64,000 nt of DNA from Mycobacteriales bacterium (GTDB lineage Bacteria; Actinomycetota; Actinomycetes; Mycobacteriales; QHCD01): positions 425 through 64,424 of the forward strand of contig JBEDUI010000071.1 of the NCBI GenBank assembly GCA_040414495.1. Reading direction: 5' to 3'. The notes beneath the pieces were generated by a model. The model was not told the DNA's origin, ran no database searches, and worked only from the letters and a program-made list of their open reading frames with translations. The first letter of the stretch is position 1; each line of letters opens with the position of its first letter. The translations under genes were made by a program, and so were the position numbers. Positions 4,344-60,891 of the stretch are shown here, piece after piece.

Positions 4344-4367
4344 TTGACGCTCGCGGGCAATAATTCC

Positions 4368-44980: not shown

Positions 44981-45646
44981 ATGGCTAATCGCAGTTACGG
45001 CGAGGCGTGCGGGCTGGCCCACGCGCTGGACCTGGTCGGCGAGCGCTGGGCGCTGCTGGTCGTACGGGAGTTGGTGCTGGGACCGAAGCGGTTCACCGAC
45101 CTGCGCGCGGGCCTGGCCGGAGCCAGTCCGAACGTGTTGGCCCAGCGGTTGCGGGAGTTGGAGGAGGTCGGCGTGGTGCGGCGCCGCCGGCTCGCGTTGC
45201 CGGCCAGTTCGGCGGTGTACGAGCTGACCGAGTGGGGCCGTGAGCTGGAGCCGATCGTGCTGGCGCTGGGCACCTGGGGGTTACGTTCGTCCCTGATGGA
45301 CGGTTCCGGGGTTCGCAGCGTGGACTCGATGATGCTGGCTTTACGGACATATTTCGCGCCCTCGGAGGGATGGAACGCCACGTACGAACTGCGATTTGGC
45401 GCCGACCGACTGATGGTGCGCGTGCGTGGCAAGGCGCTGGAGGTGACCCGGGACAGCTACGGCGAGGCCGACGCGACGCTCGCCACCAACACCGACACGT
45501 TGGCTGAGCTGCTCGGTGCCGGCCGCAATCTGAAAAAGGCAGTGGCTAATGGCGCGGCCGAAGTGGACGGCGACCAGCGGGCTCTTCGTCAGTTGCTCGA
45601 TGCAATCGTCATTCCTGAGCCGGCGTCGGCGGCAAGTCGGCAATAG
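44981..45646 (+). CDS. HxlR winged-helix regulator with C-terminal SCP2-like domain
   Basis: Y...CG.A.ALDLVGERW.LLVVREL..GPKRF.DL, YELT.WG. Confidence 0.9.
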   Translation: MANRSYGEACGLAHALDLVGERWALLVVRELVLGPKRFTDLRAGLAGASPNVLAQRLRELEEVGVVRRRRLALPASSAVYELTEWGRELEPIVLALGTWGLRSSLMDGSGVRSVDSMMLALRTYFAPSEGWNATYELRFGADRLMVRVRGKALEVTRDSYGEADATLATNTDTLAELLGAGRNLKKAVANGAAEVDGDQRALRQLLDAIVIPEPASAASRQ

Positions 45647-46904
45647 CCGAAAGCGGCACCGGCGTACCGATAACCCGCCGTTGCAGGTCGCCGATCAGGC
45701 CGCGCATCCGCAGCACCTCGGTTAATGGCGGTCCGCAGACCCGGCCCTGGCAATAACCCATTCCGCACCGGCTCAAGGCTTTTACCGCCCGGGCATCGAC
45801 CGCGCCGGCTTCGAGCGCGGCCTCAATGCCGGCCCACGGCGTCTCCTCGCAGCGACAGAACACCGTGTCCGGCTCGAGCCAATCCACCCAACCATCCCGG
45901 CGCGGATACAGCCGGGGCAATAGCTGAGCGAATTGCCGTTCCCGCGCCGGTACCTGGGCATTATCGGAGGGTTTGTGGCCGAGGTACCGCGCGGCGGCCA
46001 GGCCCGCGACCCGCCCTTCGGCCTCGGCCAACCGCACCCCGCCGATCCCGGTCGTCTCGCCGGCCACGAATACGCCAGGGATGTCGGTGGCCTGCCGGTC
46101 GTCGTGCCACACCGCCCCGCCGGCCTCGCGGCAACCCAGCGCCCGCGGCAGTTCCAGCGCCGGCACAAACCCGAACGAGACGCAGACCGCGTCCACCGCG
46201 AGCGTCCGTTCGGTCCCCGGCACCGGCCGCCAGTCCCGGCCGAGGCGGCTGACCACGATCCGTTCGACATGATCGCCACCCAGGCAGGCCGTGACCGCGT
46301 GCCCGGTCCTCATCCGGATTCCCTTACCGGACAGGGTTTTCAGGTAGCCGGCGGCCTCGGTCAGCTTACGGCCATGGCGGGCGGCGGCCAGCGCGCCGGT
46401 GTGAAACCGGGTCGCCTCGAACAGGCCGGCCACGTCCGCTCCGGCGGTCGCCAAGCCGGCCGCGACCGGCAGCAGAAACGGACCGGACCCTGCCACGACG
46501 ACCCGCCGGCCGATCAGGGTGTCCTGCCCCTTGAGCAGGGCCTGGGCCGCACCCGCGGTCACCACGCCGGGCAGGTCCCAGCCCGGGAATGGGAAAGTCA
46601 ATTCGGTCGCGCCGGTGGCGATGATGATGGCCGGCGCATTGATACGGCCGCTGGTCAGATGAAATGTACGGTCGTACACACCCCACACCGGCGCGCCCAG
46701 TCGCAGTTCGATATTGGGATGGTCGGTGGCCCGGGCGAGGTGATGTGGCAACGTTCCCGGTGTGAGATCTGACTGCCGATAGTACTGCCCGCCGACCGTA
46801 CGGTTGCCGTCAACGAGCGTCACCGCCACACCGGCGTCGGCGGCGGCCAGCGCGGCCGACAGCCCGGCCGGTCCGGCCCCGATTACGACGAGTTCAGTCG
46901 ACAT
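45609..46904 (-). CDS. FAD/NAD oxidoreductase with BFD-like [2Fe-2S] tail (alpha subunit of D-hydroxyproline dehydrogenase/HcnB family)
   Basis: VIGAGPAGL, ATGA.E..PFPGW.LPGV, AGSGP, CRCEE, K...RCGMG.CQGR.C. Confidence 0.85.
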   Translation of the reverse strand: MSTELVVIGAGPAGLSAALAAADAGVAVTLVDGNRTVGGQYYRQSDLTPGTLPHHLARATDHPNIELRLGAPVWGVYDRTFHLTSGRINAPAIIIATGATELTFPFPGWDLPGVVTAGAAQALLKGQDTLIGRRVVVAGSGPFLLPVAAGLATAGADVAGLFEATRFHTGALAAARHGRKLTEAAGYLKTLSGKGIRMRTGHAVTACLGGDHVERIVVSRLGRDWRPVPGTERTLAVDAVCVSFGFVPALELPRALGCREAGGAVWHDDRQATDIPGVFVAGETTGIGGVRLAEAEGRVAGLAAARYLGHKPSDNAQVPARERQFAQLLPRLYPRRDGWVDWLEPDTVFCRCEETPWAGIEAALEAGAVDARAVKALSRCGMGYCQGRVCGPPLTEVLRMRGLIGDLQRRVIGTPVPLSAIADLPPTPAQE

Positions 46905-47154
46905 GTGGGCCGCCCCGGGAATCGGAGGTACGGACGTCATCACCGTCGTGCAGTGGCGTCAGGCAGGAGCGAATGGCCCGTTGATCACCCACGTCGACCA
47001 GACAGTCGTAACAATTGCCGATACCGCAAAATATCCCGCGCGGTCTTCCCGATTGAGTACGCCGCCAGGATTTCACACCGCAGCGCAGCAAGGCGGCCGC
47101 GATCGTGGATCCGGCTGGGGCGGTCAAAGATTGGCCGTCAAAGGTGAATCGCAT
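46894..47154 (-). CDS. [2Fe-2S] subunit (HcnA/D-Hyp dehydrogenase gamma type)
   Basis: G.TIAAAL, R.T..GRPRGIFCGIGNCYDCLV, RSCL. Confidence 0.88.
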   Translation of the reverse strand: MRFTFDGQSLTAPAGSTIAAALLRCGVKSWRRTQSGRPRGIFCGIGNCYDCLVDVGDQRAIRSCLTPLHDGDDVRTSDSRGGPHVD

Positions 47155-48287
47155 CAAGCCGCCCTGGCCGATGTAGCGAATCGAGCCGGCGAATACGGCG
47201 TGGGATCAATCGGAGGTACGGAGCCGGCAATCTGCGCGGTGATCAACTCGGCCGTCACGGGCGCCAGCCCGATGCCGGCGCCCTCGTGTCCGGTAGCCAG
47301 GAAAAGCCCGTCGATACGCGGATCCGGCCCGATCAACGGGACACCGTCCGGGCTCGCCGGCCGGAATCCGTGGTACGTCCGCATCGCCCGTACCGTATGC
47401 AATGCGGGAAAGAGCCGGATCGCGCGCCGGGCCAATTCGGCCATTTTCCCCGGCTGCACCGACGAATCGAAACCGACGAAATCCCGGCTTGACCCGATCA
47501 ACACGGTGCCGCTGGCCGTACCTTCGACCACAGTGGAGAATGCCGTTCCCGCACCGGTAATCGTGGAAACGTAATCGGCCTCGTAAACCTTGTGCCGGAT
47601 CAACCGGTGCACCGGCTCGGTCACCAGAATGTCGCCGCGCCGGGGCCGGACCGGCGCCTCCGTTCCGAGTAACCGGGCCACCTCCCCCGACCACGGCCCG
47701 GCCGCCAGCACCGCGGCCGGCGTACTCACCTCGCCCCGGCTGGTTCGAATCCCGCTCAGCGATCCACCCGACACGACACACCCGGTGACCGCCGTCTGAT
47801 TGACGAGGGTGATATCGGCCAAATAAGAAGCCGCCGCGGCCATAGGAAAAACCTGCGCGTCCTGCGGATACCTGATTCCGCCGCATATGTCCTCGGCCAG
47901 CAATGGCTCAATGTCCCGGACATTATCCACGTGCTCAATCGTTACGCCTTGCTGTTCCTGCTTCCGTGCCAACTCCCGCAACGCCGCCAATTCGGCATCG
48001 GTCCAGGCGACGACCAAGCCGCCTTTCTCCTCGAATTCGACCTCGCGTTCACGGCCGAATTGCCGCCACAATTCGTTACTGCGCATCGCCAGCGCCAATT
48101 CGGCGCCAGGCATCTTGTCCGAAAGCAGAATGTTGCCCTCACCCGAGGCGGTGGTGCCGCCGACCACACCGGTCCGCTCGATCACGCAGACCCGCAGCCC
48201 GGCCTTGTTCAACGCAGCCGCGGTGGCGCACCCGACCAGACCGGCGCCGATCACCACGACATCAGCGGTCCGCGGCAGGTCAGCCAT
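47154..48287 (-). CDS. DadA/DAO-family FAD oxidoreductase (D-Hyp dehydrogenase beta/HcnC family)
   Basis: VVVIGAGLVG, GTT..GEGNIL.SDK, GFRP.SPD..P.IG, ATGHEGAGIGLAP. Confidence 0.85.
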   Translation of the reverse strand: MADLPRTADVVVIGAGLVGCATAAALNKAGLRVCVIERTGVVGGTTASGEGNILLSDKMPGAELALAMRSNELWRQFGREREVEFEEKGGLVVAWTDAELAALRELARKQEQQGVTIEHVDNVRDIEPLLAEDICGGIRYPQDAQVFPMAAAASYLADITLVNQTAVTGCVVSGGSLSGIRTSRGEVSTPAAVLAAGPWSGEVARLLGTEAPVRPRRGDILVTEPVHRLIRHKVYEADYVSTITGAGTAFSTVVEGTASGTVLIGSSRDFVGFDSSVQPGKMAELARRAIRLFPALHTVRAMRTYHGFRPASPDGVPLIGPDPRIDGLFLATGHEGAGIGLAPVTAELITAQIAGSVPPIDPTPYSPARFATSARAA

Positions 48288-49177
48288 CAGTACCCAGCCT
48301 GCAACGCCGTCCGGGCCGCCTTACGCACCTCACTCTCCACCTGCGCCGGCAGCGGCAATCGCGGCAGCCGCACCGGACCGCCGTACCGACCGGCCTCCTC
48401 CTGCGCCACCTTGATCGCCTGGACGAAGATCGGATCGGCGTCGTAGCGCAGGATCGGCAGCATCTGCCGGTACAGCGCGACCGCGCCGGTCCAGTCCCCC
48501 GCCGCCGCCATTCGGTGCAACGCCACCGACTGGGCCGGGAATGCGTTGACAAAGCCGGCGATCCAGCCGGTCGCGCCGGTCAGCATCGTTTCAACGAATA
48601 CGTCGTCGCAGCCGCAGATGATTTCCAGTCGCGGCGCCACCTCGCGCAACCGCGGCACCCGGCGCGCGTCCTGCGAGAACTCCTTGACCGCCACCACGAG
48701 TTCGACTTCGCTCGTGACCCGGGCCAGCAGCTCGGGGGTCAGGTCGACCCGGGTCGAATACGGGTTGTTGTAGGCGATGATCGGCAGACCGGCCTTGGCC
48801 ACCTCGGCAAAATGGGCGACGGTCTCCTCAGCAGTCGGCGCGTGCGAGGTCGGTGGCAGGCACATCACGGCCCGAACGCCCCATTCGGCCGCCTGTTCGG
48901 CCCAGCGCCGCGCCTCCGGTCCCGATTTCCCCGATACGCCAGGGACCACCTGCTCCGGTCTGTCCACTGAGTCCAGTGCGGTTCGCAGTACGGTCCCACG
49001 CTCGGTCTCGGTCAACGCCTCGTATTCGCCGAGTGATCCATTGGGGACAACGCCGGCGACGCCTTCATCGATCAGCCACCGGCAGTGCTCGGCGTACCGG
49101 TCCACGGCCAACGAGCCGTCCTCGGCAAAGGGGGTCGCGGTCGCCGCGTAAACACCGGGGAATCGAATTTCCGACAC
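48287..49177 (-). CDS. DapA-family protein, likely delta1-pyrroline-4-hydroxy-2-carboxylate deaminase
   Basis: PNGSLGEY (GSLGE instead of the DapA GTTGE), YNNP, VKEFS.D, GW.AG..NA.P, FVQAIK; start could be 49201. Confidence 0.75.
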   Translation of the reverse strand: MSEIRFPGVYAATATPFAEDGSLAVDRYAEHCRWLIDEGVAGVVPNGSLGEYEALTETERGTVLRTALDSVDRPEQVVPGVSGKSGPEARRWAEQAAEWGVRAVMCLPPTSHAPTAEETVAHFAEVAKAGLPIIAYNNPYSTRVDLTPELLARVTSEVELVVAVKEFSQDARRVPRLREVAPRLEIICGCDDVFVETMLTGATGWIAGFVNAFPAQSVALHRMAAAGDWTGAVALYRQMLPILRYDADPIFVQAIKVAQEEAGRYGGPVRLPRLPLPAQVESEVRKAARTALQAGY

Positions 49178-49338
49178 CTGCTCGTCGCCTCTCTCCGTCA
49201 TTCCAGCCATTCTCGGCCGGGGCGCTACGACAGGTGTCGGATTTCGCACCCGCTCTTTCCGACACTTCACGGTCCGGACCGCGACTAGCGTCCAACGGCC
49301 AAGCACTCCACTGCACCCTACAACGCTCGGAGTTGTCC

Positions 49339-51186
49339 ATGACGGTAGGAAGTCCCGGTCCGGCCGCACCAACCGACTCGGCCGTGGCCGCACTGCGGCC
49401 GCTGGCGGACATGAACCTGCACGAGGCCGGATTTCTCGGCCGGTGGCAACGGGTTAACGTCGAGACCACGATCCCCCGCTGCGTCGACAACCTCTACACC
49501 GCCGGCAGCATCAACAACCTGCGCTCGGTGCGCGACCGGTCTATCGAGCTGACGCCGCCGCGGTTCAGCGACTCCGATCTGTACAAAACACTCGAAGCCT
49601 GCGGTTGGGCCGCGGGAACGACATATCAGGCCAAGATCAACGGATTTCTGGACGAGGCGTTGGACCTGCTCCGGGCGGTGCAGGAACCGGACGGCTACCT
49701 GAACTCGTGGATGCAGCGCGGCGACCGTACCCGGTTTGCCGACCTCTCCCACGGCCACGAGATGTACTGCGCCGGGCACCTCATCCAGGCCGGAATCGCC
49801 TACGCCAGGGCCACCGGCGACCGCCGCCTGCTGGAAATCGGCGCGAAATTCGCCGACCTGCTCTATTCCGTTTTCGCGCCGGACGGGCACGCCGGCGTGC
49901 CCGGACACCCCGAGATCGAGACCGCGTTGGTCGAGCTGTACCGGGCCACCGGCGAGCAGCGGTATCTCACCCTGGCCGGGCTTTTCGTCGACCGACGCGG
50001 GCACCGAACCCTGGATACGTCGGTGACGCCGAGCGAGTATTTCCAGGACCACCTGCCGCTACGGGAAAACCGGCACATTGTCGGGCACGCGGTTCGTGCG
50101 ACCTACCTCGCCGCCGGGGCCACCGACGTCGCGGTGGAAACCGGCGACACCGAATTGTTGGCCGCCATGCAGGCGCTGTGGACCGACATGGTGGAAACGA
50201 AGATGTATCCCAGCGGCGGGATCGGCGCACGGCCTCACGGTGAGGCTTTTGGCGATGCGTACGAATTGCCGCCGGATCAGGCCTACGCCGAAACGTGCGC
50301 CGCCATCGCCAGCTTCATGTGGTCGTGGCGGTTGCTGTTGGCCACCGGGGATGGCAGATACGCCGAAGTCATGGAACGCACGCTGTACAACGGGATTGCC
50401 TGCTCGATCTCCCGGTCCGGAGCGGAATTCTTTTACGTCAACCCGCTGCAGTTGCGCTCTCGTGAATTCCGGGCCGCCGGTACGCAGGGCACGCGGGTGC
50501 CGTGGTTCGGCTGTGCCTGCTGTCCGCCGAACGTGGCCCGACTGGTGGCGTCGTTGGGTAGCTATTTGGCCACCGGCGATGCCGAGAGCGTGCAATTGCA
50601 TTTGTACGCCGCCGGGTCATTGCGCGTCGGCGACTCGATCGGATTGGTCGTCCGCACCGGATATCCGGCCGACGGCGCTGTGCACATCACGGTCACCGAA
50701 GGGGCGGCGGAGTGGACCCTCAGCCTGCGCATTCCACAGTGGAGCACCGCAGCCAGGATCACCGTCAACGGGACCGAGGTTCGGGCCGGGCGCAATGAAC
50801 TCGGCTATGCGGTGGTGCGCAGGCGGTGGCAGGTCGGCGACACCGTCAGTGTGGAATTCGACCTCGAGCCGCGCGTCGTCCGACCGGACAAGCGGGTCGA
50901 CGCGGCTCGTGGTTGCGCCACAGTGGAGCGTGGGCCACTGCTGTACTGCCTGGAGGAAATCGACCAGCCGGCCGGCGTTTTCGAGGATCTGCGGCTCGAC
51001 CCGGCCGGACCGATTGTCCCGGTGCCGGCCCATCCGGATCTCGTTGAGGGAACGGTCGCACTGCGGCTCGGCGGCAGCCGGGCCGGTGTGCCGGTCGAAT
51101 TGACCGCGATTCCGTATCACCAGTGGGCCAATCGCGGCGATGCCGCAATGCGGGCGTGGATACCGATAAGCGAGGAGTCGCTATGA
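49339..51186 (+). CDS. GH127 beta-L-arabinofuranosidase-like glycoside hydrolase (no signal peptide)
   Basis: FSDSD.YK..EA, HEMYCAGH, GHPEIE.AL, GHAVR, GEAF, YAETCA, WFGCACCPPN, RGPL.YC.E, IPY..WANRG. Confidence 0.92.
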   Translation: MTVGSPGPAAPTDSAVAALRPLADMNLHEAGFLGRWQRVNVETTIPRCVDNLYTAGSINNLRSVRDRSIELTPPRFSDSDLYKTLEACGWAAGTTYQAKINGFLDEALDLLRAVQEPDGYLNSWMQRGDRTRFADLSHGHEMYCAGHLIQAGIAYARATGDRRLLEIGAKFADLLYSVFAPDGHAGVPGHPEIETALVELYRATGEQRYLTLAGLFVDRRGHRTLDTSVTPSEYFQDHLPLRENRHIVGHAVRATYLAAGATDVAVETGDTELLAAMQALWTDMVETKMYPSGGIGARPHGEAFGDAYELPPDQAYAETCAAIASFMWSWRLLLATGDGRYAEVMERTLYNGIACSISRSGAEFFYVNPLQLRSREFRAAGTQGTRVPWFGCACCPPNVARLVASLGSYLATGDAESVQLHLYAAGSLRVGDSIGLVVRTGYPADGAVHITVTEGAAEWTLSLRIPQWSTAARITVNGTEVRAGRNELGYAVVRRRWQVGDTVSVEFDLEPRVVRPDKRVDAARGCATVERGPLLYCLEEIDQPAGVFEDLRLDPAGPIVPVPAHPDLVEGTVALRLGGSRAGVPVELTAIPYHQWANRGDAAMRAWIPISEESL

Positions 51187-52529
51187 CAGCGTTGAGCCGC
51201 AGGAACGCGCTGAAGGCGGGCGGTGCACTGGCCCTCGGCGCCGGGATTTCCGCCTGCGGAGGCGGATCGGGTTCGAATCAGCTCAGCTTCATGTACTGGG
51301 GCTCCTCGTTCGAGCAGAAGGCCGTGCAGCAGATGCTGCAGACCTTCACCAAGGAAAAGCACATCCCCACCAAACCCATTTACGTACCGGGCGATTACGA
51401 GACCAAGGTCAACACGTTGGTGGCCAGCCATTCCACCCCGGACGTCGCCTACATGGGCGCGGCCATGGCCTACCGGTTGGCGCAGCAGGGCAAGCTGGTC
51501 AACCTCTATCCGTATTTCAGCAAGTACACGTCGCTCTCGGACCGGCTGCCCCAGACGTATTTCTGGTACGGGAAGAACAAGTCGTTCGGCATTCAGACCG
51601 CCAACGAGATCATGGTCACCTGGTACAACAAGAAGGCCTTCAAGGACGCCGGAGCGAAAATGCCTCCGGCTAACGCCGACAAAGCCTGGTCCTGGCACGA
51701 TTTCATCCAGGCGGCGGCCAAGGTGACGGTCGACGAGAACGGCAACCGGGCCGACCAAAGCTCCTTCGATCACACCAAACCCAAGCAGTTCGGCGTCTCC
51801 TTCGACATGACGTACCAGGGCGTCTGGTACCCGATGCTGCTCAGCAATGGCGGCGACGTCTTCGACAAGGCCGGCCGCAAGTGCACATTGGACTCGCCCG
51901 AGTCGATCGAGGTATTCCAGAACTTCCAGGACCTGATGTACAAGCACCACGTCGCACCCAGCCCGTCGCAACTGGGCAACAACGCACCCACCACCCAGGT
52001 CCAATTGCAGACCAGCCGGATGGCGATGGTGATCGACGGGCAGTGGTCACTGCTGGACATCGCGGCCGCCGGGGTCGACTACGGCATCGGCGTGCTACCG
52101 AAATACCAGAAGCCGTTCACGATTTCGCTCAGCGGCGCCTCGGTCATGTTTTCGGCGACCAAGCACAAGAAGGACGCGCTGGAGCTTTACCTGTTCCACA
52201 ACGATCCGGCCCACGTCGACCTGTTCAAGGACGGATTGTGGATGCCGACGATCAAGGGCTATTACACCGACCCGAAACTGATCGACTCCTGGATCAAGAA
52301 CAAGGCCCACCCACCGGAATACAAGACCGCCGTCGTCGACTACACGTTGAATCACAGCGTCACCGACTGGAATCAGCTGGCCAAGAACGACGACAACATC
52401 AACGAGCTGCTCACGCCAGCGCTGCAGCAGATAGCGACCGGAAAGACTCCGGCCAAGGACGTTCTGAAAACTGTCGCGCCGAAGATCACCGCGCGGCTGC
52501 AGGGCTGGTATCCAACTCAGGCCGTTTGA
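51183..52529 (+). CDS. Carbohydrate ABC substrate-binding lipoprotein, Tat signal
   Basis: LSRRNALK twin-arginine, ISAC lipobox, PDV, WYNK..F..AG. Confidence 0.9.
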   Translation: MTALSRRNALKAGGALALGAGISACGGGSGSNQLSFMYWGSSFEQKAVQQMLQTFTKEKHIPTKPIYVPGDYETKVNTLVASHSTPDVAYMGAAMAYRLAQQGKLVNLYPYFSKYTSLSDRLPQTYFWYGKNKSFGIQTANEIMVTWYNKKAFKDAGAKMPPANADKAWSWHDFIQAAAKVTVDENGNRADQSSFDHTKPKQFGVSFDMTYQGVWYPMLLSNGGDVFDKAGRKCTLDSPESIEVFQNFQDLMYKHHVAPSPSQLGNNAPTTQVQLQTSRMAMVIDGQWSLLDIAAAGVDYGIGVLPKYQKPFTISLSGASVMFSATKHKKDALELYLFHNDPAHVDLFKDGLWMPTIKGYYTDPKLIDSWIKNKAHPPEYKTAVVDYTLNHSVTDWNQLAKNDDNINELLTPALQQIATGKTPAKDVLKTVAPKITARLQGWYPTQAV

Positions 52530-52542
52530 TTGAGGATCTGCC

Positions 52543-53445
52543 ATGCGCAAAGCACGCGGATTGGGCCGCAGTGAGCAGCGTTGGGGCCTGATCATGGCGG
52601 CGCCGGCGATACTGGGATTCGCCGTCTTCACATTGGTCCCGATGATCGCGTCGCTCTTCTTTTCCTTTACTGACTGGACAATCGGCGGCAGCTTCTCCTT
52701 CACCGGCCTGGCCAACTACCGGCACATGTTCGGCGACGACCCATTGTTCTACAAATCGCTGACGGTCACGCTGTATTACACGCTCGGGTCAGTGCCGCTG
52801 ATCCTCATCGTCGGCTTTCTCGCCGCGATGTTGCTCAATCAGAACGTGCGCGGCAAATCGGCCTTCCGCACGATCTATTACCTGCCGACGTTGGTGCCGA
52901 GCGTGGCCAGCGCGGTGCTGTGGATCTGGATCTTCAACCCGGATGTGGGCCTGCTCAACTCGATACTGAAGAACGTCGGACTGCCCGGCAGCAAATGGAT
53001 CTACGACTCCTCCACCGCCGTACCGTCGCTGATCCTGATGAGCACGTGGGGTTTCGGCAATGCCGCCGTCATCTTTCTGGCCGGCCTGCAGGGCGTGCCG
53101 CGGCAGCTCTACGAGGCCGTGGCGATCGACGGCGGCGGGGCGTGGCGCAAATTCCGGCACGTCACGTTGCCGATGATGACCCCGACGATCTTTTACAACC
53201 TGGTCACCGGCGTCATCGGGACTTTCCAGGTATTCAACCAGGCCTTCGTGATGACGCAGGGCGGGCCCAACAATTCCACCGAATTCTATATCTACTACCT
53301 CTACCAGACGGCGTTCACCAAGAGCGAGATGGGTTATGCCAGCGCGCTGGCGTGGGTGCTGTTCGTCATCGTGCTGATCGTCACCCTGCTGCTCTTTCGC
53401 AACGCCCGCCGGTGGGTCTACTACGAAGTGGGTGCCGCCCGATGA
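52543..53445 (+). CDS. Carbohydrate ABC permease
   Basis: FRTIYYLP, LAGLQGVPRQLYEAV.IDG EAA loop, MGYASA. Confidence 0.92.
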   Translation: MRKARGLGRSEQRWGLIMAAPAILGFAVFTLVPMIASLFFSFTDWTIGGSFSFTGLANYRHMFGDDPLFYKSLTVTLYYTLGSVPLILIVGFLAAMLLNQNVRGKSAFRTIYYLPTLVPSVASAVLWIWIFNPDVGLLNSILKNVGLPGSKWIYDSSTAVPSLILMSTWGFGNAAVIFLAGLQGVPRQLYEAVAIDGGGAWRKFRHVTLPMMTPTIFYNLVTGVIGTFQVFNQAFVMTQGGPNNSTEFYIYYLYQTAFTKSEMGYASALAWVLFVIVLIVTLLLFRNARRWVYYEVGAAR

Positions 53446-54332
53446 CCGAGACCGCATTCCGCGGGTCCGGATCGATAACCCAGCATCGCGCGCGGCGCCG
53501 CAAACGGCGGCCGCTGGCCCGCCCGGCGCTCTACCTGGTGTTGATATTGGGCGCGATTCCGACGATTCTGCCGTTCATCTGGCTGCTGCGTAGCGCGTTC
53601 ATGGGCTCCGGACAGATCTTCATCTCGCCTCCACAGTGGATTCCGCATCCCTGGGAATGGAGCAACTTCAGCGGCGCGTTGACCGCCGTCACGTTCGGGC
53701 AGTACTTCATCAACACGCTGATCATCGAGGTATTCGTGGTGATCGGCACCGTGCTGTCCTGCGCCGTGTCGGCGTTCAGCTTCGCCCGCCTGCGCTGGCG
53801 CGGACGCAACGTGGTGTTCGCGGTCATCCTGACCAGCCTGATGCTGCCCTACGCCGTGACGTTGATTCCGACCTTCATGGCCTGGCAGAAGCTCGGCGCG
53901 GTCAATACGTTCGCTCCGCTGATCGTTCCGGCGTTCGTGACCGCGGGCGGAGTGTTCAACATATTCCTCATGCGACAGTTCTTCCTCACCATTCCGTACG
54001 AATTGGATGAGGCCGCCTATATTGACGGTGCCTCGCCGCTGCAGGTCTTCTGGACAATCACGATTCCCTTGTCCCGGCCGGTGTTGGTCGTGGTCACGCT
54101 GTTTACCTTCGTCGGCGTATGGAACGACTTCCTCAATCCGCTGATCTACCTCAACGACAGCAGCAAGTTCACGCTCGCGCTGGGGCTGGCCTCATTCCAG
54201 AGCATTTACAACGCGCAGTGGGGATATTTGATGGCCGCATCCACAGTGGTGATCGCGCCCATCATCGCGCTGTTCTTCTTTGCCCAGCGCTATTTCATCG
54301 AAGGCATCACGCTGACCGGAATCAAGGGCTAG
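53442..54332 (+). CDS. Carbohydrate ABC permease
   Basis: IP.ELDEAA.IDGAS EAA loop, WNDF..PLIYL, QRYFIEG..LTGIKG. Confidence 0.92.
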   Translation: MTETAFRGSGSITQHRARRRKRRPLARPALYLVLILGAIPTILPFIWLLRSAFMGSGQIFISPPQWIPHPWEWSNFSGALTAVTFGQYFINTLIIEVFVVIGTVLSCAVSAFSFARLRWRGRNVVFAVILTSLMLPYAVTLIPTFMAWQKLGAVNTFAPLIVPAFVTAGGVFNIFLMRQFFLTIPYELDEAAYIDGASPLQVFWTITIPLSRPVLVVVTLFTFVGVWNDFLNPLIYLNDSSKFTLALGLASFQSIYNAQWGYLMAASTVVIAPIIALFFFAQRYFIEGITLTGIKG

Positions 54333-54458
54333 CGTCGGCGATCCGTTCCAGCAGCGGCGGGCCGAGGCGGAGTAACTCCTGCTCGGTATCCGACAGCGTG
54401 TGCTCCATCGCCGCCGCCAGCCAGCGGTCCCGGGTCCGCATCTCCGGGACGTCCAAGG
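54322..54458 (-). pseudogene. C-terminal remnant of a MarR-family regulator
   Basis: ALDVPEMRTRDRWLAAAMEHTLSDTEQELLRLGPPLLERIADASP*, resembling the last two MarR helices; in-frame stop just upstream, no wHTH. Confidence 0.55.
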
Positions 54459-54464
54459 CTTACA

Positions 54465-54953
54465 TCAGCGGATGAGCTGATCGAGATAGTCGGCGCCCAG
54501 GCCGTTCTTCTCGTAATGCGCCCGGCACATGTCGATCTTGCTGAATACGTCTTCCCAGCCGGTGAGTTCGTTGTTCTCATCGAGATAGATCATCGCGCCG
54601 CTGATGTTGAAGAACGTGATCATCTCGTCGCAGTCGGCCGGCACCTCGAGCGTGTGGATCTCGCCCGGCGGTTCGTACACGAAGCTGCCTTCCTCGGCCA
54701 TCCATTCGTGCTCGAAATAGTGCCACTTGCCCTTGATCACATAGCCGAAAACGGCGCCAGGATGGCGATGCCGCGACACGATGCCGGATTTGGTGACCTT
54801 GAGCAGATTGCACCACTGGCCGATCACCGTGTTGAACATCAGCGGCCGGAACCAGACGTTCGGCGCCTGCGGCACCCAGACCCGGTCGTCCTCCGGCAGT
54901 GCCGGAAACGCCAACTCCTGCGGAATAGCCGCGCCGACCAAGGACTCTGCCAT
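54465..54953 (-). CDS. 2,4'-dihydroxyacetophenone dioxygenase (DAD)-family cupin
   Basis: D.R.WVP, HRH.G.V.GY..KG.W.Y.EH.W.A..GS.VYEPPGE.HTL three-His cupin, HYE..GLG. Confidence 0.85.
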   Translation of the reverse strand: MAESLVGAAIPQELAFPALPEDDRVWVPQAPNVWFRPLMFNTVIGQWCNLLKVTKSGIVSRHRHPGAVFGYVIKGKWHYFEHEWMAEEGSFVYEPPGEIHTLEVPADCDEMITFFNISGAMIYLDENNELTGWEDVFSKIDMCRAHYEKNGLGADYLDQLIR

Positions 54954-54971
54954 CCTCGTTCTCCCTTCTGC

Positions 54972-55823
54972 TTATGCCGCCAGATATCCGCCGTCGACCG
55001 GCAGTACGGCTCCGGTGATGAATCGGGCCCCGGGTGAGGCGAGAAATACCGCCGCCGCCGCGACATCCTCCGGCGTGCCCCAGCGACCCATCGGAGTACG
55101 GGCCAACAGCCGGGCATCGGTGGCCGCGTCCGCGCGCAGATCCCGGGTCAATTCGGTGGCGATCCAGCCCGGGGCCAAGGCGTTGACCCGGATTCCGTCC
55201 GCCGCCAGGCCAACCGCCAGCGACTTCGTCAATGCCAGGACGCCGCCCTTGCTGGCCGTATAGCCGGGGACCAACGGACCGCCAAGAAAGCTGAGCATCG
55301 AAGCCAGGTTGATGATGCAGCCGTTGCTGGTGGAAAGTTGCGGCCGGGCCCGCACACAGGCGCGCATCGTGCCGGTCAGGTTGACTTCCAGCACCCGGGC
55401 GAACACCGCCGGCTCGTACTCCTGCTGACGGCTGATCGTGCCGGCACAGTTCACCAGAACGTCCAATGTGGACATTCCATCGATGACCGATTCCAGTTGG
55501 TCCGGTGCCAGCAGATCAACCTCGGTGGCGGCAACCTGATCCGGAAGTTTCGCCGCCGCCGCATTCAGCCCGGCCACGTGGGTATTCGCACCCAGGTGGT
55601 GGAACGAACGGGCGATCGCCGCGCCGATCCCGCTGGTGCCGCCGACCACGAGGACGCTGTGCCCGGCGAACAGATCCGGCCGGAAGCTGAACTCCGCAGC
55701 CATATCTTCTGCCGCCTCGGCGGCACCGCGTACCTCGGCGATACCTTCCGCCGCCTCGGCGGCACCGCGTACCTCGGCGATACCTTCCGCCGCCTCGGCG
55801 GCACCGCGTACCTCGGCGGTCAT
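54972..55823 (-). CDS. Classical SDR oxidoreductase; N-terminal 40 aa are repeat-encoded (core start 55703)
   Basis: GGTSGIG, VNCAG, S-M-L, YTASKGG, VNA.APG.I.T, P.GRWG..EDVA, VDGG. Confidence 0.9.
   Translation of the reverse strand: MTAEVRGAAEAAEGIAEVRGAAEAAEGIAEVRGAAEAAEDMAAEFSFRPDLFAGHSVLVVGGTSGIGAAIARSFHHLGANTHVAGLNAAAAKLPDQVAATEVDLLAPDQLESVIDGMSTLDVLVNCAGTISRQQEYEPAVFARVLEVNLTGTMRACVRARPQLSTSNGCIINLASMLSFLGGPLVPGYTASKGGVLALTKSLAVGLAADGIRVNALAPGWIATELTRDLRADAATDARLLARTPMGRWGTPEDVAAAAVFLASPGARFITGAVLPVDGGYLAA
55702..55818. repeat. 3 x 39-bp in-frame tandem repeat (VNTR/MIRU-like)
   Basis: ATA(C/T)CTTC(C/T)GCCGCCTCGGCGGCACCGCGTACCTCGGCG x3; encodes AEVRGAAEAAEGI on minus strand. Confidence 0.95.
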
Positions 55824-57811
55824 CCCTTCACTGCCCCCACAGTCAGCCCTTCCACGAGAAAACGCTGCGCATACCCGTAGGCCAGCACGACCGGCACGCT
55901 GATCAGGATCGATGCCGCCGACAACTGTCCCCAGGGAACTACATCACCCACGATCATCGACTGCAAGCCCAGTGGCAGCGTCTTCAGGTCGTTGTCGGTG
56001 ATGAACACGAACGCCAGCAGGAACTCGTTCCAGGCATTGGTGAGGGTGAACAACGCGACCGCAAGCAAAGCGGGTTTTACCATCGGCAGGATGATCACCC
56101 GGAACGCACGGATTCTGGTCGCGCCGTCGGTCATCGCCGCCTCTTCCAGTTCCATCGGCAGGCCGCGGAAGTAGCCCATCAGGAACCAGCACGCGAACGG
56201 CAAGGTGAACGTCGGGTACGTGATGATCAACGCCCACAGCGTGTTGATCGTGTGCAACCGACTGAGAATTGCGTACAACGGAATGAACAGTAGCGAACCG
56301 GGCATCATGTAGGTGAGCAGCACCGACCACGTGATCGTCCGCCCGCCCCGGAAACGCAATCGGGTCAGGGCATACGCGGCCAGCCCCGCCAGCGCCACCG
56401 AGACCACTGTGGACACCAGCGAGATCAGCAGCGTATTGCGGAACCACAGCCCGAACGGGTTATTGTCCAGCAGTCCGGTGAATTGACTGAACGTCCACGG
56501 TTTGGGCCACAGCAGACTCATCCGAGCGGTGATCTGCAGGTCGGACTTGAAGGCCGTGATGATCACCCAGTACAACGGCGCCAGTATGAAGAACAGCAGC
56601 AACGCCATGCCGATCCACAATGGAACGCGGCCCCATCGGCTGCCCCGCAGGCCTTTTCCGCGCCAACGCGTCAACCCATCCGAAGCCCGGGCCAACAACA
56701 TCGCCGCCAGGATCAACACGGCCAGCACGATCGCGCTTTTGATCAGCAGGTCCCGGTCGAACCAGAACAGCAATACGGCAACGGCGGCGAGAAAAGACCA
56801 GAGCAATACCCGGCCGTACTTGTCGAAGAACCGGTCCGCGGCCCGGATCGGCCCCTGCCCGCCGGGCATCATGTACCGGGCCAGCACAAAGATCAGCACC
56901 GCCGAAATCGGCAACAACATCACCGCGGCGGCCGAGCCGAGACCGTTCTGCAACTGCTGAATCGCCTCCTGGTAGGCGTACAACGTGTACAGCGCGGTCG
57001 AACTGCCCGGACCACCCTGCGTCAACAGCCAGACGACATCGAAGTTGTTGAACGTCCACATTGTCGAGAGCAGCACGCTCACCAACATGACGTACCGCAG
57101 GCTGGGCATCGTCACGTTCCGGAACCGCTGCCAGGCATCGGCGCCATCGACGGCGGCCGCCTCGTATTGCTGGGAATCAATTGCCTTCAACGCGGCCAGG
57201 AAGTTGATGGCGAAGAACGGAATTCCCTTCCACACGTTGACCACGATGACCGCCGGCATCGCCAGCTTGGGCTCCCCCAACCAGGTCGCCGGCCATTGGT
57301 CGATCAGGTGCAGATCTTTCAAGAGCGGACCGATATGTGTGGTGGACAGGACACTGTTGAGGCCGCCGAACAGCGGGTCGAAAATGGACCGCCAACTGAC
57401 CGCGGTCACCACGGTCGGAATAACCCACGGCAGCAGTACCAATGCCGTAGCAAGACCGCGGCCGCGACGTAGATTGTGCAGCAACAGGGCGGCGATCAGC
57501 CCGAGCGTGACCTTGAAGATCTCGGAGAACGCGGTGAATACGACGGTGTTCTTGACCGCGGTGCGGAAGAACGAGTCGTGCCACAACGAGGAATAGTTAC
57601 TGAATCCGACCCAGACGTTGGCGCTGCCGTGCCGGGCGGTGAAGCTCAGCCGGATCGCATCCACAAAAGGGATTCCGATCAGGCCGACGACGAGCAACAC
57701 CATCGGCGCGACGAAAAGATACCCTTCCCGCCAGTCCTTGCCGAAGAAGCTGCGCCGGCGGGTTCCTCGCCCGCGCAGCACCGCCGGGCTCGGCGCCTTC
57801 AGCAGCGTCAC
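55820..57811 (-). CDS. Fused two-domain carbohydrate ABC permease (MalF+MalG)
   Basis: Two EAA loops (YEAAAVDGA..WQRF and LEEAAMTDGATR) in one 663-aa ORF; ends GAVKG. Confidence 0.88.
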   Translation of the reverse strand: MTLLKAPSPAVLRGRGTRRRSFFGKDWREGYLFVAPMVLLVVGLIGIPFVDAIRLSFTARHGSANVWVGFSNYSSLWHDSFFRTAVKNTVVFTAFSEIFKVTLGLIAALLLHNLRRGRGLATALVLLPWVIPTVVTAVSWRSIFDPLFGGLNSVLSTTHIGPLLKDLHLIDQWPATWLGEPKLAMPAVIVVNVWKGIPFFAINFLAALKAIDSQQYEAAAVDGADAWQRFRNVTMPSLRYVMLVSVLLSTMWTFNNFDVVWLLTQGGPGSSTALYTLYAYQEAIQQLQNGLGSAAAVMLLPISAVLIFVLARYMMPGGQGPIRAADRFFDKYGRVLLWSFLAAVAVLLFWFDRDLLIKSAIVLAVLILAAMLLARASDGLTRWRGKGLRGSRWGRVPLWIGMALLLFFILAPLYWVIITAFKSDLQITARMSLLWPKPWTFSQFTGLLDNNPFGLWFRNTLLISLVSTVVSVALAGLAAYALTRLRFRGGRTITWSVLLTYMMPGSLLFIPLYAILSRLHTINTLWALIITYPTFTLPFACWFLMGYFRGLPMELEEAAMTDGATRIRAFRVIILPMVKPALLAVALFTLTNAWNEFLLAFVFITDNDLKTLPLGLQSMIVGDVVPWGQLSAASILISVPVVLAYGYAQRFLVEGLTVGAVKG

Positions 57812-59256
57812 TGCTTGAGGCCCTGCTGCTCGAAGGCCTGCACAATGCGTTTGTTGGCGTTGCTCACGGCCTGCTTGACACTGGTTCCCTTCTGCAGAAT
57901 CTCACCCATCATGTCGGTGAGCACATAGGACTGGTTGACCGCATTCACGCCGGCGCTCGGGCCCTGCGGGAAATGCAGGCCGGTCTTGAGTGTGACCGGC
58001 ACCTTTGCGTTCAACATGTCGTACGAGGTCTTGAAGATCGGGTCGCCGTGCAGGTAGTACGACTGCGATTTCCACACCTTTTCGTACGCCGGCAGCACGA
58101 TGCCCGCGCCGGAGTCCTTGGCCAGATCCAGAAGCGCGTCGCCGCCGGCCAGATATTTGGGAATCAGCTTGGCCAGGTCCGGGTTCTTCGCGCCCTTGAA
58201 GATCACGAACGCGGTCAGGTCACCAAAGGACAGTGGCGCCGGCGTTCCCGGTCCGGTCAGGCCGCGCAGGGTCGCGGTCTTGCCGTAGATCGGGCTTTTC
58301 GTGGATTTCGACTGGGCGTACAAGCTGTCCTGGTTGGCAGTCAGGCCCAGCACACCGGCCAGCCAGGCCTCGTTGTTGCCGGTGTCGGTCCAGCTGAGTA
58401 CTCCGGGTGGGAGCATTTTCTTGTACTTCTTGTTCTGGTAAATGTCGGCCAGCCAGGTGACCGCATCGATCGTCTCGGGCGAATTGAAGATGACCTTGCG
58501 TCCATCATCGGCGCAGATCGAACCGCCCCAGGCATTGATGACGGCCCCGATCGCGCCGTTGCCGTCACCACCGCGGTTGACCGTGATGCCCCAGCCATAG
58601 CGGTTCTTGGACGGATCAGAGATCTCTAACGCGATATCGCGGGCATTCTCGTAGCTGACGATGTCGCTGACCTTGATTCCCTTTTCCGTCAACCAGTCCT
58701 TGCGCACGAACCAGCCGCTGCCGATCGTGTAGAACGGCACGCCCCACCATTTCCCGTCTATCTTCAGGTAGTTGGCGGCAATGCCGGCGGCTGGACCGTA
58801 TTGCTGCTCCATTTCCGCGACCACATCGGAGACATCCTCCAGGTCGCCGAGTTGCTGCAGCTGCGGCACGAACCGGGATGCGGCGACAAAGGCCAGGTCC
58901 TGCACGTCCTTGGCTCGGACCGCTGCATCCTGTTTCGCCACGAAGTTGCCGGCGTCCGGATCGACGGTCGCATTCTTGAGGGTGGTTCCGGTCTGCTTGG
59001 CGAAATTCTGCAACGCCGTCGCGACCGACTTGTCGGCCTCTGGCGTATACATTTTCTGCGACAGCACCCGCACCGACTTCTGCTTCAGCTTCTTCGCTTC
59101 GTCCACAAGGGATGCTGGCACCTTCACCGACTTCGACAGGCTCGATGAATTGCTTGATCCCCCGCCACACGCACTCAGCGCGGCCGCGCCCGCGACCCAG
59201 GCGCCGCTGGCGAGCAGCCGGCGTCGGCTCAGCGTTGATCGATCGTGACCGTCCAT
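57808..59256 (-). CDS. Carbohydrate ABC substrate-binding lipoprotein, Tat signal
   Basis: LSRRRLL, LSAC lipobox, DGKWWGVPF, RKDW, W.D..NNEA. Confidence 0.88.
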   Translation of the reverse strand: MDGHDRSTLSRRRLLASGAWVAGAAALSACGGGSSNSSSLSKSVKVPASLVDEAKKLKQKSVRVLSQKMYTPEADKSVATALQNFAKQTGTTLKNATVDPDAGNFVAKQDAAVRAKDVQDLAFVAASRFVPQLQQLGDLEDVSDVVAEMEQQYGPAAGIAANYLKIDGKWWGVPFYTIGSGWFVRKDWLTEKGIKVSDIVSYENARDIALEISDPSKNRYGWGITVNRGGDGNGAIGAVINAWGGSICADDGRKVIFNSPETIDAVTWLADIYQNKKYKKMLPPGVLSWTDTGNNEAWLAGVLGLTANQDSLYAQSKSTKSPIYGKTATLRGLTGPGTPAPLSFGDLTAFVIFKGAKNPDLAKLIPKYLAGGDALLDLAKDSGAGIVLPAYEKVWKSQSYYLHGDPIFKTSYDMLNAKVPVTLKTGLHFPQGPSAGVNAVNQSYVLTDMMGEILQKGTSVKQAVSNANKRIVQAFEQQGLKQ

Positions 59257-59422
59257 GAATTGACACCTCTTGCCTAGAAATGGCCCCGCGCACAAATAGC
59301 GACGGCATTGCAGAGTGCGTCAATGGTGCCGCCTGCCACCGCCGACGTCCAGCTGTCCGCCATACGGATATCTAATGTCTTTTATTTGCCGGCGAAAAGG
59401 GTCACTCTCGATGCCAGGCCGG

Positions 59423-59496
59423 AGTTGATCATGAAGTTAGCGACAAATTTATCGGCGTGTCGTCGGCGTGTCGCGCAGGGAACTTCATGATCAACT
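59423..59496. repeat. 74-bp palindromic intergenic element, copy 2 (inverted relative to copy 1)
   Basis: AGTTGATCATGAAGTT / AACTTCATGATCAACT arms, 42-bp spacer, 64/74 identical to the reverse complement of 3138-3211. Confidence 0.9.
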
Positions 59497-59543
59497 GCGG
59501 AGAGGGCGGGCGAAAAAAGCACGCAACCCGTTCGCCGCGCATA

Positions 59544-59585
59544 CAAAAACGCGGTGACCATGGGGTCATGGTCACCGCGTTTTTG
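59544..59585. terminator. Bidirectional intrinsic terminator
   Basis: CAAAAACGCGGTGACCATG-GGGT-CATGGTCACCGCGTTTTTG, perfect 19-bp arms, 9 bp after the enolase-family stop. Confidence 0.88.
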
Positions 59586-59594
59586 CCAGCGTAG

Positions 59595-60863: not shown

Positions 60864-60891
60864 GATTGCTCCTACGTTGAGAAAGGGGAAA

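Follow-up and report, generated by a model that had tools for sequence, protein, structure and literature searches.

Introduction

Among described hydroxyproline (Hyp) catabolic systems, the closest to the locus reported here is the Streptomyces coelicolor operon SCO6289-SCO6293, in which deletion of the epimerase abolished growth on L-Hyp (PMC6608401). Pseudomonas aeruginosa LhpA/B/C/E/F can be grouped with it as the closest known Hyp system. D-hydroxyproline dehydrogenase (D-HypDH) has been described with a tandem beta, gamma, alpha gene order, and the same beta-gamma-alpha architecture is common to opine dehydrogenase, HCN synthase, and archaeal proline dehydrogenase (PMC4575208).

On the sugar side, in Bifidobacterium longum an intracellular GH127 enzyme, HypBA1, and its partners HypBA2 and HypAA occur together with an ABC system that takes up beta-L-arabino-oligosaccharides derived from hydroxyproline-rich glycoproteins (HRGP), and the text available from the two reports describes no link to Hyp catabolism (10.1101/2020.03.26.009860; PMC6085000). 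In Xanthomonas euvesicatoria, a GH127 enzyme with partners XeHypBA2 and XeHypAA, XeHypBA1, cleaves mainly Ara-Hyp, so the reaction that the initial annotation of our locus had proposed exists in nature (PMC6085000). We compared XeHypBA1 with the locus by description only; its account, in the text available, mentions neither an ABC importer nor Hyp catabolic genes (0 occurrences of "transporter," "epimerase," and "catabol").

Results

The locus lies in a 64,000-nucleotide stretch of a Mycobacteriales genome, called the window below, and comprises two divergent operons of four genes each (Table 1). Profile matches in Pfam and NCBIfam placed all eight genes in the families named by the initial annotation. 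The alpha subunit also has a weak Fer2_BFD match (24.3 bits, under the 26-bit Pfam cut-off) and a partial match to the NCBIfam soxA family, with an alternative start at 46904. The deaminase scores 150 bits against the dapA equivalog (NCBIfam cut-off, 206), permease 1 is UgpA-like at 2e-37, again under the NCBIfam cut-off, and the closest solved relative of the beta subunit is 1y56_B (2e-29). Both operons are compact, their neighbouring genes abutting or overlapping: the stop codon of the deaminase gene runs into the DAO start, and an ATGA overlap links the end of GH127 to the beginning of the binding-protein gene. The divergent arrangement is as first described, but the gap, put at 140 to 160 bp, measures 128 bp and widens to 137 bp if the deaminase begins at the alternative start codon, 49201.

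Table 1. Features of the divergent locus, in window coordinates
Feature	Coordinates	Strand	Main evidence
Alpha subunit of putative heterotrimeric D-hydroxyproline dehydrogenase, HcnB/SoxA-like	45609..46943	-	Pyr_redox_2 2.5e-29 (Pfam)
Gamma subunit, small [2Fe-2S] protein	46894..47157	-	Fer2_4 5.1e-27 (Pfam)
Beta subunit, FAD-dependent DAO-family dehydrogenase	47154..48287	-	DAO 5.5e-66 (Pfam)
DapA-like (DHDPS family) putative deaminase	48287..49210	-	DHDPS 1.9e-44 (Pfam)
Shared divergent spacer, candidate operator and rearrangement junction	49211..49338	.	Inverted repeat
GH127 glycosidase, cytoplasmic, putative beta-L-arabinofuranosidase	49339..51186	+	GH127 catalytic/middle/C-terminal 5.3e-92, 2.5e-19, 3.1e-19 (Pfam)
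ABC substrate-binding protein, Tat-signal lipoprotein, sugar-type (CUT1-like)	51183..52529	+	SBP_bac_8 1.6e-24, SBP_bac_1 3.7e-19 (Pfam)
ABC permease 1, MalF/UgpA-like	52543..53445	+	BPD_transp_1 2.2e-15 (Pfam)
ABC permease 2, MalG/UgpE-like	53442..54332	+	BPD_transp_1 7e-20 (Pfam)

The left operon has the domain content of SCO6289-SCO6293, namely, a DAO beta subunit, a Fer2_4 gamma subunit, a soxA-like/Fer2_BFD alpha subunit, and a DHDPS-like deaminase (PMC6608401, Table 2), and its gene order agrees with that described for D-HypDH (PMC4575208). This four-gene set is present in a single copy in the genome. The gamma gene lies between beta and alpha, and alpha follows both, in all six relatives. 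Orthologues of the left-operon genes (44 to 90% identity) are linked to a Pro_racemase-family epimerase gene in 6/6 relatives and in 5/5 close metagenome loci, with deaminase orthologues (64 to 90% identity) adjoining that gene. The assignment of the genes to the D-HypDH and deaminase type holds. Unlike the S. coelicolor operon, the left operon has no adjoining GntR-type HypR gene, its upstream region appears to have given way to that of the GH127 cassette, and its epimerase is missing: neither a Hyp epimerase nor an aldehyde dehydrogenase was found among the scanned window open reading frames (ORFs). The only epimerase of the genome is on another contig (C199), adjoining a PucR regulator and a Dpp-type (peptide) ABC transporter; it retains the two catalytic cysteines, and the epimerase found within the Hyp cluster of a same-genus genome (G001) matches it at 82% identity.

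The GH127 enzyme of the right operon carries the motifs GEAF, YAETCA, and CACCPPN at residues 301, 316, and 392, and the same three motifs align in the solved GH127 4qjy. Its translation has no hydrophobic N-terminal segment, which fits the cytoplasmic, catalytically intact enzyme with an ABC importer described at the outset. The N terminus of the binding protein, MTALSRRNALKAGGALALGAGISAC, contains a twin-arginine motif and a lipobox cysteine, which fits the Tat export given in the initial annotation. The best solved relatives of the GH127 enzyme and of the binding protein are 4qjy (3.6e-121, followed by 6ex6 at 7.5e-114) and, as a distant match, the arabino-oligosaccharide-binding protein 6rjy (2.5e-22), both from Geobacillus stearothermophilus and presumably from one arabinan-utilisation system. 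Arabinanase and GH51 genes are both absent from the window. The locus differs from the B. longum system in that the scanned window ORFs include neither a GH121 nor a GH43 partner, and HypBA1 (3wre/3wkw, 1.4e-91) is only the third-best solved relative. The right operon has no ABC ATPase gene. The genome holds four strong GH127 paralogues, three of which adjoin sugar ABC genes (a binding protein with one or more permeases) with neighbours that differ from set to set, and araA is present on contig C161.

We examined whether the deaminase-GH127 junction is real. It lies within positions 46500 to 49783, which are covered by a 5,373-nt Logan contig (run X1, record 1) from a separate assembly of what is probably the source sample. 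The same join is present on single contigs of runs X3 (record 22) and X5 (record 25), metagenomes of other studies, and these two contigs share about 88% and 92% identity with the window. The junction is genuine and not an assembly artefact, and since two metagenomes bridge it at these identities, it has persisted through some divergence. Of the substitutions listed for these relatives, 14/19 in the DAO gene and 6/8 in the deaminase gene fall at third codon positions (815 further differences lie outside these counts), and the Hyp genes look to be under selection there.

The pairing was not conserved beyond a very narrow clade. Hyp genes were found at 0/40 GH127 loci and GH127 at 0/14 Hyp-type loci (0/6 and 0/8), and in Actinomycetota genomes with both gene sets the two were paired in 0/16 (apart in 6/6 relatives and 10/10 others). 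Neighbours were annotated for nine of the 40 foreign GH127 loci; an L-arabinose isomerase and/or an FGGY-family sugar kinase was present at three of them and GH51 at two, and LacI is also among the partners of homologous loci. In a genome of another genus (G008), the whole right-operon cassette is found among unrelated genes, 676 kb from the Hyp cluster, with identities of 69, 78, 92, and 89% for GH127, binding protein, permease 1, and permease 2. Compared with G001, the window is syntenic from 4.8 to 35 kb but not from 36 to 64 kb. From these comparisons, the pairing in this soil actinobacterium probably arose through a local rearrangement of recent date that only very close relatives share, which leaves a dedicated pathway for plant arabinosyl-hydroxyproline possible but not supported. 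Conserved synteny in relatives, which the model of the initial annotation requires, was absent outside this clade. The junction itself is shared by the two close metagenomic relatives. One would hardly expect the single Hyp locus to fall next to any of the four GH127 loci by chance in a genome of about 6.8 Mb, but the locus had been singled out from a very large scan.

The spacer contains an inverted repeat, GTGTCGGA (49234 to 49241) and TCCGACAC (49258 to 49265). It is identical at 71/128 positions to the region upstream of the G008 GH127 orthologue, a score reached by 0/200 shuffles, and the palindrome is semi-conserved with that cassette. The genome contains this palindrome a single time, and it was not found at the epimerase locus or the araA locus. 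On the deaminase side, homology to G001 stops at the deaminase start codon. The spacer with its palindrome therefore appears to be inherited from the GH127 cassette, and with the breakpoint at the start codon, transcription of the Hyp operon would have to start in the spacer that belongs upstream of the cassette. Co-regulation of the two operons is therefore physically plausible. A Hyp operon without upstream DNA of its own, 24 to 55 bp from a palindrome apparently inherited from the cassette, is what regulatory capture would be expected to look like.

Discussion

We favor, at a probability of about one in two, the explanation that a rearrangement particular to this lineage placed two ordinary catabolic modules side by side in divergent orientation. 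The minus-strand module would be an L-Hyp catabolic operon that lost the epimerase from its locus. L-Hyp would be converted to D-Hyp by the epimerase from the other contig, the beta-gamma-alpha D-HypDH would oxidize cis-4-D-Hyp to delta1-pyrroline-4-hydroxy-2-carboxylate, and the DapA-like deaminase would convert this to alpha-ketoglutarate semialdehyde. The plus-strand module is probably self-contained, as its conservation in G008 apart from the Hyp cluster suggests. Its binding protein and two permeases would import a small beta-L-arabinofuranose-capped glycoside, most likely beta-arabinobiose or arabino-oligosaccharides, from which the cytoplasmic GH127 would free L-arabinose for the araA pathway, which is encoded at another locus. 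The Hyp operon would be transcribed from the cassette's spacer with its palindromic candidate operator. For every enzyme of the locus and for the transporter, the substrate is one that we infer, and so is any co-regulation of the two operons.

The initial annotation had instead seen one co-regulated unit for the uptake and cleavage of Araf(n)-Hyp and the breakdown of its Hyp. Spelled out for this genome, Araf(n)-Hyp glyco-amino acids or short glycopeptides would enter through the ABC system, GH127 would strip beta-L-arabinofuranose, and the Hyp, epimerised by the C199 enzyme, would be degraded by the adjacent operon. CUT1-type importers are known to accept glycosides with non-sugar aglycones, which counts in favor of such import, and the adjacency and the shared spacer are genuine. 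XeHypBA1 prefers Ara-Hyp and HypBA1 accepts Ara1-3-Hyp (PMC6085000). The comparison, however, gave this model no support, and we consider it distinctly unlikely: the orthologous cassette of G008 is separate from the Hyp genes, homologous GH127 loci are found with araA, an FGGY-family kinase gene, GH51, or LacI and never, among the 40 surveyed, with Hyp genes, and the nearest solved proteins are the Geobacillus pair rather than HypBA1. L-Hyp from a plant glycoside would also require the epimerase, which is unlinked here, and B. longum, the one import system described in the sources available, takes up a Hyp-free disaccharide (10.1101/2020.03.26.009860; PMC6085000). A co-regulated HRGP-themed unit with separate substrates, kept because Hyp catabolism gained the control of the GH127 cassette, is also improbable, but is the one of these alternatives that we would take most seriously. 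Under it, cells growing on HRGP from plants or algae would induce both beta-L-arabino-oligosaccharide uptake and hydrolysis and Hyp oxidation, with Hyp, free or in peptides, entering by the Dpp-type transporter that adjoins the epimerase. The common spacer with its unique, semi-conserved palindrome, a breakpoint that coincides with the start codon of the deaminase, and the retention of the junction in two diverged relatives with mostly third-position changes listed in the Hyp genes all speak for it. Against it, conservation ends at the narrow clade, no regulator gene adjoins the two operons, the palindrome is a candidate operator, the epimerase and araA lie at other loci where it was not found, and no peptidase, GH121, or GH43 is among the scanned window ORFs.

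Two further alternatives concern the parts rather than the whole. The left operon could encode a related heteromeric flavoenzyme and a DapA-family lyase for another imino acid or a glycated amino acid; flavin opine dehydrogenase, L-proline dehydrogenase, and HCN synthase are the candidate types. OdhABC (flavin-containing opine dehydrogenase) and HcnABC (HCN synthase) share its three-subunit architecture and cofactor motifs (PMC4575208), its proteins reach no curated NCBIfam model, and the epimerase is absent from the locus. We nevertheless regard this as very unlikely, because the context of the orthologues, with epimerase and deaminase, points to Hyp and not to opines or glycine, and the genome, which retains an epimerase orthologue, has no second set of this kind. 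That the adjacency is a chimeric join might be suspected from an assembly of 296 contigs with 3% estimated contamination, the best DNA match coming from a soil metagenome, but contigs of X1 and of two other studies cross the junction and contradict it, and we reject it as having next to no chance of being correct. As for the two-module explanation itself, the observations that run against it are the keeping of the junction across divergence, the selected look of the Hyp genes, the low prior odds of such an adjacency, and the apparently cassette-derived palindrome near a Hyp operon that lacks upstream DNA of its own.

Two divergent operons

Eight genes at 45609-54332 form two tight, divergently oriented operons (start codons and overlaps checked), and Pfam and NCBIfam place all eight in the families that the initial annotation had named. 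The spacer between the operons measures 128 bp, or 137 bp with an alternative deaminase start, instead of the 140 to 160 bp estimated there. The window ORFs scanned include no gene for an ABC ATPase, a hydroxyproline (Hyp) epimerase, or an aldehyde dehydrogenase.

Genes of the two divergent operons, with coordinates in the window
Gene product	Position	Strand	Family evidence
DHDPS-family protein, putative Pyr4H2C deaminase	48287-49210	-	PF00701 1.9e-44
DAO-family flavoprotein (β)	47154-48287	-	Pfam/NCBIfam
Small Fer2_4 protein (γ)	46894-47157	-	Pfam/NCBIfam
Pyr_redox_2 protein (α) with weak BFD-like [2Fe-2S] match	45609-46943	-	Pfam/NCBIfam
GH127, three domains	49339-51186	+	PF07944 5.3e-92, PF20736 2.5e-19, PF20737 3.1e-19
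Family-1 solute-binding protein (SBP_bac_1/8)	51183-52529	+	Pfam/NCBIfam
MalF/MalG-like permease pair, BPD_transp_1	52543-53445 and 53442-54332	+	Pfam/NCBIfam

Putative hydroxyproline catabolism genes of the left operon

The β (DAO), γ (small 2Fe-2S) and α genes lie in tandem along the left operon, the order described for d-Hyp dehydrogenase in the available text of one study (PMC4575208). The Fer2_BFD match of the α subunit is weak (24.3 bits versus a cutoff of 26). The deaminase has the DHDPS fold and is not a true DapA, as it scores 150 bits against the dapA equivalog, whose cutoff is 206; its top solved relative, 3na8, is named only "putative dihydrodipicolinate synthetase," and a separate dapA-like match lies on another contig (C221). 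The four-gene set occurs once in the 6.85-Mb assembly. It has orthologues with 43 to 90% identity in six relatives (a congener, two members of the same family, and three of the same order), each with a Pro_racemase-family gene within or next to the Hyp cluster, one copy being distant and partial. When metagenomes were scanned with the DapA-like protein, eight loci were recovered, five of them at 64 to 70% identity, and in each of these five the epimerase gene is directly downstream. On the two longer contigs it is followed by DAO (L087) or by DAO, Fer2, and the α subunit (L089).

The orthologous clusters share their architecture with Streptomyces coelicolor SCO6289-93, for which the available text lists the same domains and reports that deletion of the epimerase gene abolishes growth on l-Hyp (PMC6608401). 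Given this architecture and the β-γ-α order, we accept the earlier assignment of the left operon as a putative d-Hyp dehydrogenase and Pyr4H2C deaminase, the enzymology being predicted. Because dehydrogenase and lactonase genes are present at two GH127 loci of other species, the DapA-like protein was also considered as an l-2-keto-3-deoxyarabonate dehydratase of an oxidative arabinose route; this was rejected, since its orthologues lie in Hyp clusters and the genome has araA.

Identity to the cluster of the same-genus genome G001 (L021, G001:C134:66000-85999) is uneven, at 89.5% for the deaminase, 66% for DAO, 72% for Fer2, and 71% for the α subunit, with two other proteins giving a baseline of 84 to 85%. 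This pattern suggests a mosaic operon or a replaced dehydrogenase.

In the window the deaminase gene adjoins the dehydrogenase genes, and the only Pro_racemase-type epimerase gene of the genome is on contig C199. The genes of the Hyp pathway are therefore divided between two loci. The C199 epimerase keeps both catalytic cysteines and shares 82% identity with the epimerase inside the Hyp cluster of G001, close to the 84 to 85% of two other proteins. Its gene is flanked on one side by a PucR-type regulator gene and on the other by genes for an amidohydrolase and a Dpp-type peptide ABC transporter (G000:C199:38187-49999; L001 and L008). In G007 and G008, two genomes of the same family, the same outer context surrounds the whole Hyp cluster together with a DUF885 gene, and the C199 locus appears to be a Hyp cluster that has lost its dehydrogenase and deaminase genes.

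GH127 and sugar importer of the right operon

The GH127 protein has the catalytic, middle, and C-terminal β domains, all with Pfam matches above the cutoff. Its motifs GEAF (residue 301), YAETCA (residue 316), and CACCPPN (residue 392) align to GESF, YAETCA, and CACCPPN of the solved structure 4qjy, and by the residue roles of the HypBA1 literature they supply the catalytic Glu together with a Glu/Cys3 zinc site and its nucleophilic Cys. Solved relatives (Geobacillus 4qjy, 3.6e-121; 6ex6, 7.5e-114; HypBA1, 1.4e-91) comprise arabinofuranosidases and also BT1003-type enzymes; the aceric acid hydrolase equivalog NF049879 gives 376.1 bits, far below its cutoff of 950. The translated binding protein has a twin-arginine motif and a lipobox cysteine at its N terminus, and that of GH127 shows nothing signal-like. 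The best solved relative of the binding protein is the arabino-oligosaccharide-binding protein 6rjy (2.5e-22). The family-1 binding protein and the permease pair, with partial UgpA/UgpE and MalF/MalG-like matches, make up a CUT1-type importer whose operon has no ATPase gene. Clusters for hydroxyproline-rich glycoproteins (HRGPs) of the Bifidobacterium longum/Xanthomonas type pair GH127 with a GH121 β-l-arabinobiosidase and a GH43 α-1,3-arabinofuranosidase, whereas the window ORFs scanned with Pfam include neither.

The cassette is kept in G008, which belongs to another genus, with 69% identity for GH127, 78% for the binding protein, and 92 and 89% for the permeases. There it is surrounded by unrelated genes and lies 676 kb away from the Hyp cluster. 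A recent horizontal transfer from the G008 lineage is not supported, as these identities (69 to 92%) bracket the 74 to 77% of one housekeeping-type protein.

Four strong GH127 paralogues are present in the genome, and beside three of them lie sugar ABC genes that encode a binding protein and one or more permeases, with differing neighbors. The other three paralogues (contigs C119, C274, and C285; L093 to L095) show 44 to 47% identity; two have sugar ABC genes, to which one of them adds a divergent LacI gene, and the remaining one adjoins a GFO/IDH/MocA oxidoreductase gene near a GH106-like gene. Neighbors were annotated for 9 of 40 GH127 loci from other species: an l-arabinose isomerase and/or FGGY-family sugar kinase gene flanks three, GH51 flanks two, and LacI regulators are common. 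The isomerase gene araA is present on another contig of our genome, C161. The most economical reading is that the cassette would take up a small β-l-arabinofuranose-capped glycoside from which cytoplasmic GH127 would free l-arabinose.

In two of the foreign loci (L046 and L047), two GH127 genes flank genes for a GFO/IDH/MocA dehydrogenase and a xylose-isomerase-like TIM-barrel protein, and an SGL-type lactonase gene comes after; L046 adds an aldose 1-epimerase gene, L047 a LacI gene. The arrangement recurs and may provide an oxidative pathway for the sugar that is released. An Rfam search of 45000-55000 gave only an AdoCbl-II match inside GH127, which is below threshold (21 versus 36.5 bits, E value of 0.57) and was taken as chance.

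The junction and its spacer

Misassembly was ruled out, as contigs of three runs bridge the junction. An independent Logan contig from the probable source sample spans 46500-49783, and single contigs from two other studies, from soil (about 88% identity) and a termitarium (about 92%), join the deaminase and GH127 genes. Among the substitutions listed, a small sample, third codon positions account for 14 of 19 in DAO and 6 of 8 in the deaminase gene. The runs listed as holding the stretch include no RNA run.

Synteny with contig C107 of G001 holds for 4.8-35 kb of the window and is absent for 36-64 kb. In alignment, homology to the G001 deaminase gene stops at the start codon. Upstream of it, the spacer aligns with the region 5' of the G008 GH127 orthologue (71 of 128 positions identical, with the exact blocks TTCACGG and CTAGCGTCC), a score reached by none of 200 shuffles and about 3 standard deviations over the shuffle mean. 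In G001, the upstream DNA of the Hyp operon is the epimerase gene. The breakpoint at the deaminase start codon therefore means that the Hyp operon lost its own upstream DNA, and so it must now be transcribed from the cassette spacer.

Inside the aligned part lies an inverted repeat, GTGTCGGA-N16-TCCGACAC (49234-49265), which is semiconserved in G008. As a candidate operator it is 24 to 55 bp from the Hyp operon, and coregulation of both operons is physically plausible. The spacer holds the only exact site in the genome, which has three sites at up to one mismatch; a genome search for a palindrome regulon found none at the epimerase locus (C199) or on the araA contig (C161). Scans for sigma-70 promoters and terminators gave no site in the spacer or at the operon end, a result that carries no information in a high-GC actinobacterium.

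A strong fold is predicted for the 5' leader and initial codons of the DapA-like gene (49150-49300, minus strand; -70.5 kcal/mol; z score of -4.48; none of 200 shuffles as good). A predicted 11-bp perfect stem (49170-49180/49231-49241) encloses the start codon, and its upstream arm can alternatively pair with 49258-49265; the fold may merely mirror the DNA palindrome. The soil and termitarium contigs have other letters in place of 49168-49242.

Conservation of the pairing

We searched 40 GH127 loci from other species (36 to 69% identity, with up to 10 kb of flank on each side where the contig allowed), and in none did the four Hyp genes or the epimerase gene have a homologue (E value of ≤1e-10). 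Conversely, GH127, the binding protein, and the permeases are missing from all six Hyp loci of relatives and all eight metagenome loci, and the six relatives with both gene sets have them on separate contigs or with at least 389 kb in between. In a wider, evenly sampled set of 300 other Actinomycetota, 49 had a Pro_racemase match (a tally that includes four genomes flagged as unpublished, G266, G058, G041, and G088, which no other count uses), 32 had a GH127 match, and 10 had both. The two were unpaired in all 10, being on different contigs in eight genomes and at least 646 kb apart in two. Conserved synteny in relatives is thus absent beyond very close kin, which is the outcome that the initial annotation had named as speaking against its model. 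A second link through PhyH genes, found by the Hyp cluster of G001 and by the C119 GH127 cassette, was rejected, as the proteins are only 28% identical.

Explanations for the joined operons

Hydroxyproline-rich glycoproteins are a large soil pool of carbon and nitrogen, and we know of no described bacterial pathway in which the arabinose caps and the hydroxyproline of a single glycoside are both used. The coupling had been put forward as undescribed, and a search of open-access papers and preprints likewise turned up no paper on it. The best explanation, to which we give a probability of about 0.5, is that two known modules were brought together by a recent rearrangement, without a common substrate. 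The initial annotation had instead proposed that the cell imports Araf(n)-Hyp, cleaves it with GH127, and catabolizes the Hyp in one coregulated unit. The junction has persisted, the spacer is common to both operons, and a GH127 favoring Ara-Hyp is described, XeHypBA1 (PMC6085000), all of which argue for such import; against it stand the autonomous cassette of G008, the arabinose contexts around GH127 homologues, the unlinked epimerase, and, in the one import system described, the uptake by B. longum of a disaccharide without Hyp (10.1101/2020.03.26.009860; PMC6085000). We regard Araf(n)-Hyp import as improbable.

An HRGP-themed divergent regulon, in which the two operons would serve separate substrates, is unlikely. 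Quite unlikely, too, is that a recent fusion of the Hyp operon start codon to the GH127/ABC spacer, confined to a narrow clade of soil Actinomycetota, created a divergent regulon that serves Hyp-O-arabinosides from plant or algal glycoproteins, with sugar and amino acid both used.

If the pairing is functional, it would be a simple version consisting of an importer and a cytoplasmic enzyme, testable with three recombinant proteins. On present evidence, the locus serves best as a cautionary case and a dated rearrangement, in which a known Hyp operon was parted from its epimerase gene and rehung on the control region of another operon. It offers a clean natural case for asking whether regulatory captures alter regulation.

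Other genes of the window

After the GH127 cassette, a second sugar-type operon occupies 54465-61046 on the minus strand. It encodes an enolase-superfamily protein (MR_MLE), an SDR, a ChrR-type cupin, a 495-amino-acid binding protein without a Pfam match, and a fused two-domain MalF/MalG-like permease of 663 amino acids; genes for LysR and GntR/FCD regulators lie further along. The 5' end of the SDR frame (54972-55823) contains 3.0 copies of a 39-bp unit (55702-55818; 97% matches), which encode AEVRGAAEAAEGI three times before the start of the Pfam SDR match (about residue 52). A glucuronoyl-esterase-like gene (GCE_fung, 1e-32) is located at 3249-4367 on the minus strand, and sugar ABC systems and LacI regulators are abundant in the window, a setting that fits a plant-cell-wall-degrading organism.
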